Shown: positions 22,701-63,679 of the stretch, piece by piece
Layout: every line of letters begins with the position of its first letter
Position numbering within the stretch: the stretch's first letter is position 1
Notes under the pieces: model-generated
What the model was told of the DNA's origin: nothing
Databases searched by the model: none
The model's input: only the letters and a program-made list of their open reading frames with translations
Position numbers and translations under genes: made by a program
From: a phage
Sequence record: PZ452606.1
DNA length: 64,000 bases
Reading direction: 5' to 3' (one strand)

Positions 22701-23631
22701 TACAACACGTTCTACTGTATTTGAAGTTGGTGATGAAACATCTAATCACTTTTATTCTCAACGTAATAAAGCTGGTAATATTACGTTTAGCATTAATGGT
22801 ACTGTGATGCCAATAAATGTTAACGCTTCCGGTTCATTGAATGCGAATGGCGTAGCAACATTTGGTAGTTCAGTTACAGCCAATGGTGAATTCATTAGCA
22901 AGTCTGCAAATGCTTTCAGAGCAATAAACGGTGATTATGGATTCTTTATCAGGAATGATGGCGGCAGCACATATTTTATGCTCACTGCATCCGGTGATCA
23001 GACTGGCGGATTTAATGGATTACGTCCTTTAGCTATTAATAATGCATCTGGCCAAGTAACGATTGGTGAAAGCTTAATCATTGCCAAAGGTGCTACTATA
23101 AATTCAGGTGGTTTGACTGTTAACTCGAGAATTCGTTCTCAGGGTACTAAAACATCTGATTTATATACCCGTGCGCCAACATCTGATACTGTAGGATTCT
23201 GGTCAATCGATATTAACGATTCAGCCACTTATAACCAGTTCCCAGGTTATTTTAAAATGGTTGAAAAAACTAATGAAGTGACTGGACTTCCATACTTAGA
23301 ACGTGGCGAAGAAGTTAAATCTCCTGGTACACTGACACAGTTTGGTAACACACTTGATTCGCTTTACCAAGATTGGATTACTTATCCAACGACACCAGAA
23401 GCGCGTACCACTCGCTGGACACGTACATGGCAGAAAACCAAAAACTCTTGGTCAAGTTTTGTTCAGGTATTTGACGGAGGTAACCCTCCTCAGCCGTCTG
23501 ATATCGGTGCTTTACCGTCTGATAATGCTACAATGGGAAATCTTACTATTCGTGATTTCTTACGAATTGGTAATGTTCGCATTATTCCTGACCCAGCGAA
23601 TAAAACGGTTAAATTTGAATGGGTTGAATAA
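19762..23631 (+). CDS. 34: long tail fibre proximal subunit gp34
   Basis: 1289 aa; N-terminus MAEIKRKFRAEDGLDAGGDKIINVALADR; internal TETRRG repeats; late promoter upstream. Confidence 0.95.
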   Translation: MAEIKRKFRAEDGLDAGGDKIINVALADRAVGTDGVNVDYLIQENTVQQYDPTRGYLKDFVIIYDNRFWAAINDIPKPAGAFNSGRWRALRTDANWITVSSGSYQLKSGEAISVNTAAGNDITFTLPSTPIDGDTIVLQDIGGKPGVNQVLIVAPVQSIVNFRGQQVRSVLMTHPKSQIVLIFSNRLWQMYVADYSREAVVVTPASLYQAQSNDFIVRRFTSAAPINVKLPRFANHGDIINFVDLDKLNPLYHTIVTTYDETTSVQEVGTHSIEGRTSIDGFLMFDDNEKLWRLFDGDSKARLRIITTNSNIRPNEEVMVFGANNGTTQTIELQLPTNISVGDTVKISMNYMRKGQTVKIKAAGEDKIASSVQLLQFPKRSEYPPEAEWVTVQELVFNGETNYVPVLQLAYIEDSDGKYWVVQQNVPTVERVDSLNDSTRARLGVIALATQAQANVDLENSPQKELAITPETLANRTATETRRGIARIATTAQVNQNTTFSFADDIIITPKKLNERTATETRRGVAEIATQQETNAGTDDTTIITPKKLQARQGSESLSGIVTFVSTASATPASSRELNGTNVYNKNTNNLVVSPKALDQYKATPTQQGAVILAVESEVIAGQSQEGWANAVVTPETLHKKTSTDGRIGLIEIATQSEVNTGTDYTRAVTPKTLNDRRATESLSGIAEIATQVEFDAGVDDTRISTPLKIKTRFNSTDRTSVVALSGLVESGTLWDHYTLNILEANETQRGTLRVATQVEAAAGTLDNVLITPKKLLGTKSTEAQEGVIKVATQSETVAGTSANTAVSPKNLKWIVQSEPTWAATTAIRGFVKTSSGSITFVGNDTVGSTQDLELYEKNSYAVSPYELNRVLANYLPLKAKAADTNLLDGLDSSQFIRRDIAQTVNGSLTLTQQTNLSAPLVSSSTATFGGSVSANSTLTISNTGTATRLIFEKGPQTGTNPAQTMTIRVWGNQFGGGSDTTRSTVFEVGDETSNHFYSQRNKAGNITFSINGTVMPINVNASGSLNANGVATFGSSVTANGEFISKSANAFRAINGDYGFFIRNDGGSTYFMLTASGDQTGGFNGLRPLAINNASGQVTIGESLIIAKGATINSGGLTVNSRIRSQGTKTSDLYTRAPTSDTVGFWSIDINDSATYNQFPGYFKMVEKTNEVTGLPYLERGEEVKSPGTLTQFGNTLDSLYQDWITYPTTPEARTTRWTRTWQKTKNSWSSFVQVFDGGNPPQPSDIGALPSDNATMGNLTIRDFLRIGNVRIIPDPANKTVKFEWVE

Positions 23632-23639
23632 GAGGTATT

Positions 23640-24755
23640 ATGGAAAAATTTATGGCAGAGTTTGGACAAGGATATGTCCAAACGCCATTTTTATCGGAAA
23701 GTAATTCAGTAAGATACAAAATAAGTATAGCGGGTTCTTGCCCGCTTTCTACTGCAGGACCATATGTTAAATTTCAAGATAATCCCGTAGGAAGTCAAAC
23801 ATTTAGCGCAGGCCTTCATTTAAGAGTTTTTGACCCTTCCACCGGAGCATTAGTTGATAGTAAGTCATATGCTTTTTCGACTTCAAATGATACTACATCA
23901 GCTGCTTTTGTTAGTTTCATGAATTCTTTGACGAATAATCGAATTGTTGCTATATTAACTAGTGGAAAGGTTAATTTTCCTCCTGAAGTAGTATCTTGGT
24001 TAAGAACCGCCGGAACGTCTGCCTTTCCATCTGACTCTATATTGTCAAGATTTGACGTATCATATGCTGCTTTTTATACTTCTTCTAAAAGAGCTATCGC
24101 ATTAGAGCATGTTAAACTGAGTAATAGAAAAAGCACAGATGATTATCAAACTATTTTAGATGTTGTATTTGACAGTTTAGAAGACGTAGGAGCTACCGGG
24201 TTTCCAAGAAGAACGTATGAAAGTGTTGAGCAATTTATGTCGGCAGTCGGTGGAACTAATAACGAAATTGCGCGTCTACCAACTTCAGCTGCTATAAGTA
24301 AATTATCTGATTATAATTTAATTCCTGGAGATGTTCTTTATCTTAAAGCCCAGTTATATGCTGATGCTGATTTACTTGCTCTTGGAACTACAAATATATC
24401 TATCCGTTTTTATAATGCATCTAATGGATATATTTCCTCGACACAAGCTGAATTTACTGGGCAAGCTGGGTCATGGGAATTAAAGGAAGATTATGTAGTT
24501 GTTCCAGAAAATGCAGTAGGATTTACGATATATGCACAGAGAACTGCTCAAGCGGGACAAGGCGGTATGCGAAATTTAAGCTTTTCTGAAGTATCAAGAA
24601 ACGGCGGCATTTCAAAACCTGCTGAATTTGGCGTCAATGGTATTCGTGTTAATTATATTTGTGAATCTGCTTCACCTCCGGATATAATGGTACTTCCTAC
24701 GCAAGCATCGTCTAAAACTGGTAAAGTGTTTGGGCAAGAATTTAGAGAAGTATAA
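23640..24755 (+). CDS. 35: tail fibre hinge protein gp35
   Basis: 371 aa, immediately after 34. Confidence 0.85.
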   Translation: MEKFMAEFGQGYVQTPFLSESNSVRYKISIAGSCPLSTAGPYVKFQDNPVGSQTFSAGLHLRVFDPSTGALVDSKSYAFSTSNDTTSAAFVSFMNSLTNNRIVAILTSGKVNFPPEVVSWLRTAGTSAFPSDSILSRFDVSYAAFYTSSKRAIALEHVKLSNRKSTDDYQTILDVVFDSLEDVGATGFPRRTYESVEQFMSAVGGTNNEIARLPTSAAISKLSDYNLIPGDVLYLKAQLYADADLLALGTTNISIRFYNASNGYISSTQAEFTGQAGSWELKEDYVVVPENAVGFTIYAQRTAQAGQGGMRNLSFSEVSRNGGISKPAEFGVNGIRVNYICESASPPDIMVLPTQASSKTGKVFGQEFREV

Positions 24756-60098: not shown

Positions 60099-60461
60099 TT
60101 AAAAGAATTTAAACTTTTTCTTTGACCTTTTATTAAATGCATCTTGTAGTTGCATTGTAATACATTTTTCTACATGAGGAGCTAACTCAGCTTTTCTTTC
60201 TTGGTCAAGAACAGCAAAGTCCATTACAACCTTTCCATCAACCCAATCCAGTTTAGTTACATACACTATATGTGTAGAACCATCTTCTAGTTTAATGACA
60301 ATCTCCTGGATAACATTTTCCATGGCAGATTTAATTATCTTAAGAGATTCATTAAAAAGACGTTCTTTTCTTTCTTCTTCCCCCTCCGAAGAGGGGGATT
60401 CATCGATAATTTCTAGATCTAAATCTAAATCATCTTTATTCATTAAATTCTTCCATATCAC
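60099..60461 (-). CDS. 40: gp40 head assembly protein
   Basis: 120 aa between uvsX and 41; alternative ATG at about 60443. Confidence 0.6.
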   Translation of the reverse strand: MIWKNLMNKDDLDLDLEIIDESPSSEGEEERKERLFNESLKIIKSAMENVIQEIVIKLEDGSTHIVYVTKLDWVDGKVVMDFAVLDQERKAELAPHVEKCITMQLQDAFNKRSKKKFKFF

Positions 60462-61617
60462 TTAACTGCTCGAGGTCAGTTTCTAAATCAGCTGCTGATT
60501 TACTTTTACTTTCTGAGGATTTAAATTTTTCAACCTTTGAGTTAATTAATTCATCAACTTCCGCTTCAACAATTTCATTACTATCAATAGCACCTAACTG
60601 ATAAGCACGCTTAATAGCATCTCGGAATGGTTGATGCTTAAATAAAGGACCCCAGAATGTAGTGCAGTTAGTATCTTTTGCACGCCAAGATTTTTCTTCG
60701 CGAATCATCTCGCCGGTTTCTTCGTCAAGAAATTCACGAGCATACCAACCATTTTTAGGTTTTACTACAAATCCTAATTCTAGAGCCATATCTAACAATC
60801 CAGAATAAGGATCGATACCACCGTCAAATTTAACATCAATAAAGAATTTACTTTTTTCTTTAACGGTACGAGATTTTTCTACATTTAGAACAAATTGATA
60901 CCCCTGAAGATCAGAACCATCTTTAATCTGACGCTTACCGATAATGAATACAGTATCAGCCGAATACATTACGCCTGTACCACCTGTCATCACGGTTTTA
61001 CTAAACATTTCAATTGTTTCAATTGTATGGTTAACCGCAACACATGGAATATTTTTAATGCTAAAGTAAGGAGTAACAATACGGAATAATGACTTCAGCG
61101 ATTTAGCACGAGTCATATCTGCCACAGATTTTTCATTCAAGGCATCTTCAGTTTCTTTCTTAGAAGCCATATTACCGATTGAGTCGATGAATACAATAAC
61201 TTTTTCACCGCGCTCAATAGCTTCAAGCTGATTCACCATATCAATTTTCAGCTGTTCAACTGACTGGATTGGCGTATGAATTACTCGTTCCGGGTCAACT
61301 CCCATGGATCGCAAATAAGCTGGAGTAATACCAAATTCGCTATCATAGAATAGACAAACCGCGTCAGGATATTTGTTCAAATACGCCGCAACCATAGTCA
61401 AAGACATATTTGATTTAAAGTGTTTAGAAGGCCCTGCGAAAATAGTTAAACCAGACTGCATGCCGCCATCAATCGCACCAGAAATAGCAATATTAAGCAT
61501 TGGAATTTTTGTACGAATTACATCCTTTTCATTAAAGAATTTAGATGTAGTCAGTTCAGCAGTCATTTTAGAAGTGGAAGCTTTAATCAAACGGGATTTT
61601 AAATCTGCAATAGACAT
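60436..61617 (-). CDS. uvsX: recombinase UvsX (RecA-like)
   Basis: 393 aa; Walker A GPSKHFKS. Confidence 0.9.
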   Translation of the reverse strand: MSIADLKSRLIKASTSKMTAELTTSKFFNEKDVIRTKIPMLNIAISGAIDGGMQSGLTIFAGPSKHFKSNMSLTMVAAYLNKYPDAVCLFYDSEFGITPAYLRSMGVDPERVIHTPIQSVEQLKIDMVNQLEAIERGEKVIVFIDSIGNMASKKETEDALNEKSVADMTRAKSLKSLFRIVTPYFSIKNIPCVAVNHTIETIEMFSKTVMTGGTGVMYSADTVFIIGKRQIKDGSDLQGYQFVLNVEKSRTVKEKSKFFIDVKFDGGIDPYSGLLDMALELGFVVKPKNGWYAREFLDEETGEMIREEKSWRAKDTNCTTFWGPLFKHQPFRDAIKRAYQLGAIDSNEIVEAEVDELINSKVEKFKSSESKSKSAADLETDLEQLSDMEEFNE

Positions 61618-61670
61618 TCATTTTTTCCATAGGCATCATTATATTTTCCTCACTGGTTAAAGATAGAGTA

Positions 61671-61694
61671 ATTATAACACAATAAATTTAGGCA
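61671..61694 (-). promoter_or_regulatory. candidate middle promoter upstream of uvsX
   Basis: TGCCTA (MotA-box-like, one mismatch), 12 nt, TATAAT. Confidence 0.35.
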
Positions 61695-62543
61695 TTAATC
61701 AACTGCTATTGGATGAATAGCATTAAACTTATGAAATGCTTCTGATTTTTCTTTACGCGAAACACACATGCGAAGAACCTTTAATGGCTCGTCTTCTTCA
61801 CCCAACGATTTTCGTTTTTCAATATTCGATGTTTTCCAACGAGCTTGCTCTGGAAACTCTCTATTAATCTGCTCAAGCGCTCTATTATGTTTAGAATTAC
61901 TACGAATTGAACTGCACCCGCCAGGAGCTTGTGCTTTTCCAGATACAACTAGATATTTGAACAAGGCCAAATGCGGATAACCTTGATTAATTAAATTGAG
62001 AAATGCATACATATCTTCGCATAAATCAATTTTTCCATACCCAATTTGTTCTGTCGTAAGTTTTCCGAGGTCATACCATGTATTCGTGAATCCATATGAA
62101 TTTTCACGATAATTACCCCAAGATGAAGTAATTTTAAAAATAGGTAGACGAGCATGGCCATGATAATACCCGCAATCCATGGCATCCTCAACATATTGAA
62201 TCAATTCATAGAACTGTTCACGAGTCAATTGATTGACTTTATCTACGCAACGACGATCATCTCTTTTTCGCATTGAACTCATACGAATAGTAGTATCATC
62301 GTCAATCATCCAGATTCGTTGACCTGCATACATATCGGTAATTGCTTTACGAGTACCGGCAATTCCGTTTACATCATCAGGAATAGTTATAATTTTAGCT
62401 CTAGACCCATAAGCGTCATGATAAGCTTTTTCTTCATGTTCACGCACTACAATATGCGGTTCATAATCAGTCGGAAACATATCAAGGGCAGAAACTGCCC
62501 TGACACGCTGATAACTTGGAATTACGAATTGAATCATTTCCAC
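61695..62543 (-). CDS. putative glycosyltransferase (DxD motif), candidate HMC-DNA glucosyltransferase
   Basis: 282 aa with IWMIDDDTT; sits where T4 has beta-gt but does not resemble it. Confidence 0.5.
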   Translation of the reverse strand: MEMIQFVIPSYQRVRAVSALDMFPTDYEPHIVVREHEEKAYHDAYGSRAKIITIPDDVNGIAGTRKAITDMYAGQRIWMIDDDTTIRMSSMRKRDDRRCVDKVNQLTREQFYELIQYVEDAMDCGYYHGHARLPIFKITSSWGNYRENSYGFTNTWYDLGKLTTEQIGYGKIDLCEDMYAFLNLINQGYPHLALFKYLVVSGKAQAPGGCSSIRSNSKHNRALEQINREFPEQARWKTSNIEKRKSLGEEDEPLKVLRMCVSRKEKSEAFHKFNAIHPIAVD

Positions 62544-63274
62544 TCACCTTTATAGTCTTTTTTCACAATATGAGTTTCGCCAGTATTCCACCAATGATCA
62601 ACCAAGTAAAAATGACGAGAATATACATGAAGACTTCCGACATTCCATATAATAGAACCTGCTTTATACTGACGAGATGAATCGCCGGCATTCAAATCAG
62701 ATACTAATTTATCTAATACGTATTTTTGCCATGCATAATCATTACGGAATCCGAAGACCACGTCATTTGAGCGCATGCTTACTACTGCATTGACTTTCTT
62801 ATCACGAATCAGGTACTGTACTGTATTAGTACACATGAAATCTGACATACCATCTTTATTGTAGTCAAATTGCATGGATGGACGAGTATAAATCATGATA
62901 CCACGTCGAGAATCAGGATTTTGACCAAGTTCAGCTAAACACATATCATACTGGGCATAGTTATCTTCTGACCAAATAGCCCAACCATAATTCGAGTTAA
63001 TTTCGCCTTTAGAAGATGCTACCTGCTGCCAAATCTTTGGTGTTTCACCTGGAATATCTTTAACAAACAAGCTCTTAGATTTATACCATTCAAGTTCACG
63101 TTGAATGTATTCATCATTAAGAGCGCCAAAAATAAACGGTTCATCTGCTACAAATGATGCGCCAATAATTTCAATAGTTTTAACACCAGTTTTATCAACT
63201 ACGAAATCTTTTTCTTTTAATGCAAGCCCCAAATGAAGACGGATTTCTTCAACTGTCATAGAGTCACTAATCAT
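62534..63274 (-). CDS. 42: dCMP hydroxymethylase gp42
   Basis: 246 aa; matches T4 gp42 from memory. Confidence 0.95.
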   Translation of the reverse strand: MISDSMTVEEIRLHLGLALKEKDFVVDKTGVKTIEIIGASFVADEPFIFGALNDEYIQRELEWYKSKSLFVKDIPGETPKIWQQVASSKGEINSNYGWAIWSEDNYAQYDMCLAELGQNPDSRRGIMIYTRPSMQFDYNKDGMSDFMCTNTVQYLIRDKKVNAVVSMRSNDVVFGFRNDYAWQKYVLDKLVSDLNAGDSSRQYKAGSIIWNVGSLHVYSRHFYLVDHWWNTGETHIVKKDYKGEWK

Positions 63275-63281
63275 TTAAACC

Positions 63282-63431
63282 TCAATTGATACATTCATAT
63301 TTAACTTGTAACAGTAATAAACCCCAACCTAAAATAATAGTTGGAATCATAAGAGGAACCGTTACACTATAGTATATACTTATTATAATCATCAAGATTA
63401 AAAGCAACACTGCTATAATTTTGCTTTTCAT
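63282..63431 (-). CDS. small hydrophobic membrane peptide
   Basis: 49 aa read by eye (MKSKIIAVLLLILMIII...); ATGA overlap with imm stop. Confidence 0.35.
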   Translation of the reverse strand: MKSKIIAVLLLILMIIISIYYSVTVPLMIPTIILGWGLLLLQVKYECIN

Positions 63432-63679
63432 TCCTTCTCTCTGATGATAATTACTTGATTTGGCTGTGCAGACTTTTTAGTTTCACCTGCAATTGACCAA
63501 ATAAATGTAATAAACCAACCAATAATTGACCAGTTAAACAGCAAAGACGTGAAAAAGATTCCTACTGTCGATTTTGACCCACGCATCAAGGCGATAAACC
63601 ATGGAAGCATGTATATAATAATAGCCAACACACCTGAAACTAAAACCATAAAAATTGAACCTGCTACTAAAGTTTCCAT
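63428..63679 (-). CDS. imm: immunity to superinfection protein Imm
   Basis: 83 aa, two TM helices; matches T4 Imm. Confidence 0.9.
   Translation of the reverse strand: METLVAGSIFMVLVSGVLAIIIYMLPWFIALMRGSKSTVGIFFTSLLFNWSIIGWFITFIWSIAGETKKSAQPNQVIIIREKE

Follow-up and report, generated by a model that had tools for sequence, protein, structure and literature searches.

Classical biochemical work (cited in PMC13216743 and PMC6024577) established that the DNA of phages T2 and T6 carries β-1,6-glucosyl-α-glucosyl (gentiobiosyl) hydroxymethylcytosine (hmC), which represents 5% and 72% of hmC, respectively, and is made on α-glucosyl-hmC by their homologous ba-gt enzymes (UniProt Q06717 and Q06718, as cited in PMC6024577). 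The gene for the α-glucosyltransferase, a-gt, is paired with ba-gt in twelve sequenced RB phages (Thomas et al. 2018, PMC6024577). The T2/T6 enzyme has been equated with the Pfam family TAGT (TET-associated glycosyltransferase), and the usual pairing is a glucosyltransferase (GT, α or β) with TAGT, while α-GT together with β-GT, as in T4, was found in only 6 of 753 genomes (2026 NAR paper, PMC13216743). Here we analysed 64,000 nt of phage DNA (record PZ452606.1, in the following "the window"), in which a minus-strand open reading frame (ORF), 61695-62543, lies between uvsX and gene 42, i.e. in the slot of the β-GT gene (beta-gt) of T4. With a probability of roughly 93%, the product of this ORF is the T2/T6-type β-glucosyl-HMC-α-glucosyltransferase (ba-gt, also called ggt or TAGT), acting after α-GT in the synthesis of gentiobiosyl-hmC.

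Several relatives have been studied biochemically. In Tequatrovirus phages of the Durham collection the position of TAGT is syntenic with that of β-GT in T4 (2026 AEM paper, PMC13390438). High-performance liquid chromatography-mass spectrometry (HPLC-MS) of virion nucleosides from Some, TB37, Solly, and four other phages gave about one third 5-hydroxymethylcytosine (5hmC), about two thirds α-gentiobiosyl-hmC, and no β-glucosyl-hmC, and for Geo, EL, and BGP the ratio of hmC to α-glucosyl-hmC to gentiobiosyl-hmC was 1:2:2 (PMC13390438). Deletion of ba-gt in T6 left only α-glucosyl-hmC and resulted in a greater sensitivity to the Brig1 glycosylase (Hossain et al. 2024, PMC11078745), and the deglucosylase BapA frees glucose from T6 delta-g-gt DNA, not from wild-type T6 DNA (2026 preprint, bioRxiv 10.64898/2026.02.25.707755).

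The product of the window gene matches PHROG 842, "beta-glucosyl-HMC-alpha-glucosyltransferase", over positions 3-269 of 270 (8.4e-89). It also matches Pfam PF20691 (TAGT) over positions 2-205 of the 205 of the hidden Markov model (HMM), with 42.2 bits compared to a gathering score of 27.5 bits. With its 280 aa, the product has the same sequence as RB51 ORF043 and the RB68 protein. The T2 protein differs at 4 residues (98.6% identity) and the T6 protein at 5 positions, the genes for these comparisons having been taken from the same locus of AP018813 (T2) and AP018814 (T6). The proteins of the window, T2, T6, and RB51 all belong to one 90%-identity cluster of 485 members, which is named beta-glucosyl-HMC-alpha-glucosyl-transferase by NCBI and UniRef, and ggt or the same full name is the annotation in RB18 and many other close relatives. 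The family matches, the cluster names, and the 4 and 5 differences to T2 and T6 bear out the suggestion of the initial annotation that the ORF may encode the β-glucosyl-HMC-α-glucosyltransferase of T2/T6-type phages. The likeness to the T2/T6 genes includes the locus, the length of 280 aa, the ATGA overlap with gene 42, and the signature residues; the remaining differences are allelic only.

Of 50,697 phage records searched with tblastn, 689 contain a ba-gt homologue. At an identity of at least 95% there are 472 records, nearly all of them T4-like phages of Escherichia, Shigella or Yersinia, and another 203 records with 60-80% identity represent phages of Klebsiella, Enterobacter, and Salmonella. 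The search of 1.84 billion cluster representatives yielded 330 members of the family. The surrounding 8 kb of the window have 98.5% identity to RB18, the best match in the phage collection, and 97.7-97.8% to Some and TB37; judged by its sequence, the source phage is a mosaic Tequatrovirus. One record stands apart: PV654520.1 (142 kb, "Pseudomonas phage vB_PSGBLB0006", host P. aeruginosa) contains a 98.6% identical ba-gt beside a gene 42 homologue. This would not be expected of a Pseudomonas phage; the record may be mislabelled or contaminated with Tequatrovirus DNA.

T4 β-GT (PF09198) shares with the window enzyme not only the genomic slot, but also the presumed type of reaction, i.e. a post-replicative glucosylation of hmC-DNA with uridine diphosphate (UDP)-glucose and a β linkage. 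In contrast, there is no sequence similarity (best BLASTP E-value 2.2, no PF09198 match at E up to 1), so that a relationship was ruled out, and the folds differ, GT-B for the T4 enzyme versus GT-A for the window protein. The acceptors differ as well, bare hmC for T4 β-GT versus the 6-OH of the α-linked glucose for the T2/T6-type enzyme, and the T4 interval additionally contains segA. A relationship to T4 α-GT (PF11440, GT-B) was also ruled out (best BLASTP E-value 0.72, no Pfam match). With tblastn, no homologue of T4 beta-gt (best E-value 1.5) or a-gt was found anywhere in the 64-kb window. The initial annotation was thus right that the protein does not resemble T4 β-GT, and of the checks that it had proposed, sequence comparison showed near-identity to the T2/T6 proteins and only chance-level matches to α-GT, and fold prediction resulted in a GT-A-type fold.

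The predicted model of the ba-gt product is a single GT-A-type domain, unlike the fold of two Rossmann domains (GT-B) of T4 β-GT. All fold matches of the model are GT-A or nucleotidyltransferase folds. It belongs to the same fold class as the inverting GT-A enzymes of the GT2 family (TarP, TarS, BcsA, and the chondroitin and hyaluronan synthases), with which it has two motifs in common, one of the DxD type following the fourth strand and the other an acidic "ED"; by sequence, the product is not a member of the GT2 or Pfam Glycos_transf_2 models. Conservation was assessed in an alignment of 142 full-length representatives of the family (50% clustering), and three motifs were localized in the gene:

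62295-62303, minus strand: codons GAC GAT GAT of D79-D80-D81, the DxD-type motif, at the end of the predicted β-strand 74-79
62505-62507, minus strand: codon CGT of R11, part of the I-P-S/T-x-x-R motif at the N-terminus; all 138 ungapped representatives have R
62013-62018, minus strand: codons of E174-D175, the "ED" motif, D175 is kept in all 142 representatives, E174 in 81%

In the model the DxD motif follows a central strand. D79, D80, and D81 are kept in 140, 142, and 134 of the 142 representatives, respectively, showing that the triplet is a true signature of the family and not a chance occurrence. Similar values were obtained for G206 (140), G207 (142), and R212 (136). In the window protein R11, R63, D79-D81, D175, G206, G207, and R212 are all intact, and it has the consensus residue at every position that is conserved in at least 80% of the representatives. 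By analogy with the GT2 enzymes, D79-D81 presumably bind the metal and the UDP-sugar, and D175, or E174-D175, is probably the general base of an inverting GT-A reaction.

In the proposed pathway, gp42 would make hydroxymethyl-dCMP, the ultimate substrate of glucosylation, and the gene for this step of hmC synthesis is present in the window. After replication, the phage α-GT would add an α-linked glucose to part of the hmC. The product of ba-gt, in all likelihood a small GT-A-fold enzyme with D79-D81 as presumed metal/UDP-sugar site and E174-D175 as probable base, would then use UDP-glucose to add a second glucose β-1,6 to the first one, resulting in gentiobiosyl-hmC. This is the product in the orthologues and is assigned here by analogy.

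A few points weigh against this assignment or against its extension to the DNA of the window phage. A sequence search of solved structures gave no relative of ba-gt, only chance matches with E >1, and no NCBIfam model matches the product. The α-GT partner is assumed from the relatives and its locus is outside the window; in RB51, T2, and T6 the distance from gene 42 to a-gt is about 13 kb, which corresponds to a position outside the window. The enzyme of T2 is 98.6% identical, and yet T2 has only about 5% gentiobiosyl-hmC (PMC6024577, PMC13390438), showing that a high identity does not guarantee a high activity. In addition, R13 of the window protein is absent from every phage with measured DNA, so that the ratio of mono- to diglucosylated hmC is an extrapolation.

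To arrive at this prediction, the enzymes of the measured phages were extracted and compared residue by residue with the window protein, with the following differences:

Some: R13G, A14T; high gentiobiosyl
TB37 and Solly: R13G, H40Y; high gentiobiosyl
Geo, EL, and BGP: R13G, H40Y, I50V, M89I, R95K, C97R, V101I, A202S, Q203H; intermediate, 1:2:2
T2: R13G, H40Y, R11H, P251S; about 5% gentiobiosyl

The window allele is thus characterized by R13 and H40 and has neither the T2-specific changes (R11H, P251S) nor those of the Geo type. R13 is shared with RB51 and RB68, while G is found at this position in T2, T6, and the Durham phages; across the family, position 13 is variable (D/N/G/E/H). TAGT of Some, TB37, and Solly has only two differences each to the window protein, and these phages have the same gene order and no beta-gt. 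Their virion DNA was measured, whereas the DNA composition of the window phage is predicted; R13, the one private residue of the window allele in this comparison, is absent from these phages. Because the window enzyme is just two residues away from the enzymes of these measured T6-like phages, we predict with moderate confidence that the DNA of the window phage is T6-like as well, with mostly gentiobiosyl-hmC, little α-glucosyl-hmC, and no β-glucosyl-hmC. About a quarter to a third of the hmC is predicted to be bare. The ratio of mono- to diglucosylated hmC could also depend on the expression level and on the α-GT partner.

The best surviving alternative is that the window gene encodes the same enzyme as a low-activity, T2-like allele, and that the DNA contains mainly mono-α-glucosyl-hmC and only a few percent gentiobiosyl-hmC. 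The near-identical T2 protein with its low product level would be the precedent, Geo, EL, and BGP are intermediate (1:2:2, PMC13390438), and R13 has no counterpart among the measured phages. However, the window protein lacks R11H, which is at a family-invariant site, P251S, and the haplotype of seven substitutions of Geo, EL, and BGP; its closest measured relatives, two residues away, are the high-gentiobiosyl phages Some, TB37, and Solly, and position 13 is variable in the family. We therefore regard a low-activity allele as unlikely.

The comparison led to several observations on the alleles themselves. In the T2 enzyme (AP018813, 7283-8125 of L002), R11H affects the family-invariant R and accompanies P251S; the four T2 accessions under which this sequence is listed all have R11H. 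This exchange could explain why T2 has about 5% gentiobiosyl-hmC compared with 72% in T6; in the literature, we found no paper that proposes R11H as the cause of the low gentiobiosyl content of T2. Geo (L008, 23868-24710), BGP (L009, 8199-9041), and EL (L010, 6119-6961) have an identical haplotype of seven substitutions (I50V, M89I, R95K, C97R, V101I, A202S, Q203H), which is absent from Some, TB37, Solly, and the window. It is a tentative idea, and one that we would not yet bet on, that natural ba-gt alleles set the ratio of mono- to diglucosylated hmC in T-even DNA. If so, R11H would explain the difference between 5% in T2 and 72% in T6, the seven-substitution haplotype would explain the 1:2:2 ratio of Geo, EL, and BGP, and the window/RB51 allele (R11, R13) would have a high activity.

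Two public T6 records disagree with respect to ba-gt, i.e. AP018814 (7135-7974 of L003) and MH550421 (7138-7980 of L007). In AP018814, from which RefSeq YP_010067197 is derived, (GAT)3 is shortened to (GAT)2, so that one Asp of the DDD motif is missing. In MH550421 DDD is kept, but codon 10 is TAG (a stop at Q10), and the annotated gene begins at M20 (261 aa). The T6 stocks of laboratories may differ in their ba-gt lesions. The deletion from DDD to DD was ruled out as the cause of the high gentiobiosyl content, because DDD is present in MH550421, Some, TB37, and Solly.

Two further alternatives are much less probable. The protein could belong to the same family, but use another acceptor or sugar (β-glucosyl-hmC, bare hmC or another hexose), so that the product is not gentiobiosyl-hmC. 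In other genera, TAGT homologues occur with β-GT instead of α-GT, and they are alone in many phages (PMC13216743), which indicates that the specificity of the family is not uniform. However, those homologues are at most 65% identical, whereas the window protein shares 98-100% of its residues with the T2, T6, and RB51 type and hardly differs from the enzymes of phages in which α-gentiobiosyl-hmC was measured. In addition, the window contains no beta-gt. A different specificity is thus very unlikely. Even slightly less probable is an inactive or decaying gene that has no effect on the DNA. The lesions in the public T6 records (a deletion of one codon of DDD in AP018814, TAG at codon 10 in MH550421) indicate that loss-of-function variants circulate in stocks. 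The window gene, in contrast, has none of these lesions and no stop or frameshift, all family-invariant residues are kept, and its product does not differ from that of RB51/RB68. A sugar-1-phosphate nucleotidyltransferase or another non-glycosyltransferase of the same fold is hardly credible. Nothing was found that contradicts the identification as ba-gt.

The structure of the gene and its neighbours can be summarized as follows:

61695-62537, minus strand: ba-gt (ggt) coding sequence, 280 codons, TAA stop at 61697-61695; T2/T6-type β-glucosyl-HMC-α-glucosyltransferase, Pfam TAGT
62534-62550, minus strand: translation start region of ba-gt, as read from the sequence
62534-63274, minus strand: gene 42, dCMP hydroxymethylase homologue, upstream neighbour; Pfam Thymidylat_synt (1.2e-15), annotated as gp42 in RB51 and T4
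60436-61617, minus strand: uvsX, downstream neighbour; Pfam T4_UVSX_C (4.6e-39) and RecA, and annotations

The ORF of the initial annotation, 282 codons from a GTG and including the motif IWMIDDDTT, exists as described between uvsX and gene 42; only its length has to be corrected, as the product probably has 280 aa. The ATG at 62537-62535 overlaps the stop codon of gene 42 (TGA, 62536-62534) as ATGA, and a Shine-Dalgarno-like sequence, AAGGTGAG, is found at 62550-62543, just 5′ of this ATG. Because of the overlap and the upstream AAGGTGAG, the sequence makes the ATG at 62537 the most likely true start, and the product is therefore expected to have 280 aa, in accordance with the annotated length in RB51, T2, Some, TB37, Geo, and Solly. 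The GTG at 62543-62541 is merely a mechanical ORF boundary. At the 3′-end of gene 42, where 199 nt were compared, the nucleotide identity to the T4 gene is about 93%. A spacer of 77 nt (61618-61694) separates ba-gt from uvsX, and the order gene 42, ba-gt, uvsX is common to the window, RB51, T2, T6, Some, TB37, Geo, and Solly.

Homologues of the TAGT protein in three other genera, Karamvirus, Gelderlandvirus, and Jiaodavirus (vB_VIPECLUMC02, STML-198, and PSE-D1), have about 64-66% identity to the window protein. They also directly follow gene 42 and have the same overlap, the same motifs, and the same mRNA hairpin at the 5′-end. The latter was analysed by RNA folding:

62465-62549, minus strand: predicted mRNA structure at the ba-gt start, a hairpin enclosing the AUG, followed by a second, GC-rich one in codons 11-21

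For the 101 nt around the start (62465-62565) the minimum free energy is -30 kcal/mol (z -3.9), and 1 of 200 shuffled sequences was as stable. The core of the GC-rich hairpin, GGGCAG-NNN-CUGCCC, is located at 62501-62485 (codons 13-18) and is also a terminator-like match. In Tequatrovirus, Karamvirus, Jiaodavirus, and Gelderlandvirus (about 65% protein identity) this GGGCAG/CUGCCC core does not vary, even at synonymous sites, and in the alignment of the four genera the AUG hairpin is preserved via changes from G-U to G-C. This comparison of few lineages is suggestive, rather than proof, of a conserved mRNA structure at the 5′-end. The overlap of 4 nt between gene 42 and TAGT is also annotated in the Karamvirus, Jiaodavirus, and Gelderlandvirus homologues. 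Together, the conserved ATGA overlap and the mRNA structure point to a coupling of ba-gt translation to gene 42, and we infer that ba-gt is probably coupled via the ATGA overlap, with its AUG held in a hairpin. The 5′ hairpins may thus serve to couple the translation of ba-gt to that of gene 42, or for attenuation between the two genes.

A scan of 61400-63500 resulted in 14 sigma-70 promoter-like sites versus 9.5 expected and 1 terminator-like site versus 1.0 expected, numbers that by themselves say little. The RNA of the spacer between ba-gt and uvsX is predicted to fold no more stably than shuffled sequences (z -0.17). This spacer contains, at 61671-61694 on the minus strand, TGCCTAA followed by 11 nt and TATAAT, which is absent from the list of the sigma-70 scan. 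We take this arrangement to resemble a T4 MotA-dependent middle promoter, with a MotA box near -30 and a -10 element, placed so that it could drive uvsX.

The locus was compared with T4 at the nucleotide level:

61606-62555, minus strand: segment non-homologous to T4, 950 bp versus 1945 bp (beta-gt and segA) in T4
61693-61717, minus strand: last 7 codons of ba-gt, TAA, and 2 more nt; 25 nt, of which 24 are identical in T4

With blastn, the homology to T4 stops at window position 62556 (T4 25501), 7 codons before the stop of gene 42, and restarts at 61605 (T4 23555) in codon 5 of uvsX. The remainder of gene 42 and uvsX has 88-93% nucleotide identity to T4. As the recombination junctions are inside of the flanking genes, gene 42 differs from T4 in its final 7 codons (62534-62556; …KDYKGEWK versus …KDYVGKYA in T4) and uvsX in its first codons (61605-61617; MSIADLKS versus MSDLKS in T4).

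The 25-nt match (pairwise blastn-short, E-value 7e-7) aligns window 61717-61693 with 24262-24238 of T4 NC_000866 (L004, 9239-9263), and the T4 remnant of ba-gt is directly upstream of segA (23570-24235). This relic indicates that the T4 lineage once had, or gained by recombination, a ba-gt gene at this locus. The sequences suggest that ba-gt of the T4 lineage was replaced by beta-gt together with segA, or, alternatively, that the flank came by segA-associated recombination, and the relic fits the view of the T4 arrangement as derived. The region downstream of T4 beta-gt also has 11 nt in common with the window spacer, but this match is at chance level (E-value 0.64) and was discarded.

In Karamvirus and Gelderlandvirus the gene order is gene 42, TAGT, beta-gt (Enterobacter phage vB_VIPECLUMC02, L012, 1-1428; Salmonella phage STML-198, L015, 1-1428), showing that both types of transferases can share the locus. 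Unlike in the window, the gene next to TAGT is thus a β-glucosyltransferase gene, the acceptor is presumably β-glucosyl-hmC, and the product presumably a disaccharide on it.

The combination of α-GT and TAGT is the common state in Tequatrovirus, and α-GT with β-GT, as in T4, is the rarity. The window gene is thus already known and not an unusual replacement, because it is a standard, characterized T2/T6-type gene in the majority state of the genus. It matters as annotation only and opens no new question. The T4 relic, R11H of T2, the discordant T6 records, the correlation of alleles and phenotypes, and the 5′ mRNA structure leave the verdict on ba-gt unchanged.

The expectation of the initial annotation that such an enzyme would change the glycosylation pattern of the DNA and its sensitivity to host defence is borne out by published work on T6 and its close relatives (PMC11078745, PMC13390438, PMC13216743). 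By analogy with T6, the gentiobiosyl pattern should lessen the attack by Brig1, a glycosylase of α-glucosyl-hmC (PMC11078745), and resistance to the deglucosylase BapA is expected (bioRxiv 10.64898/2026.02.25.707755). By the same analogy, the quarter to third of bare hmC would be open to hmC-specific defences, e.g. Brig3, and the DNA would still be a substrate of GmrSD/BrxU-type enzymes (sources for these consequences: PMC11078745, PMC13216743, PMC13390438, and bioRxiv 10.64898/2026.02.25.707755). Such predictions would help to anticipate the host range of phages in phage therapy collections.

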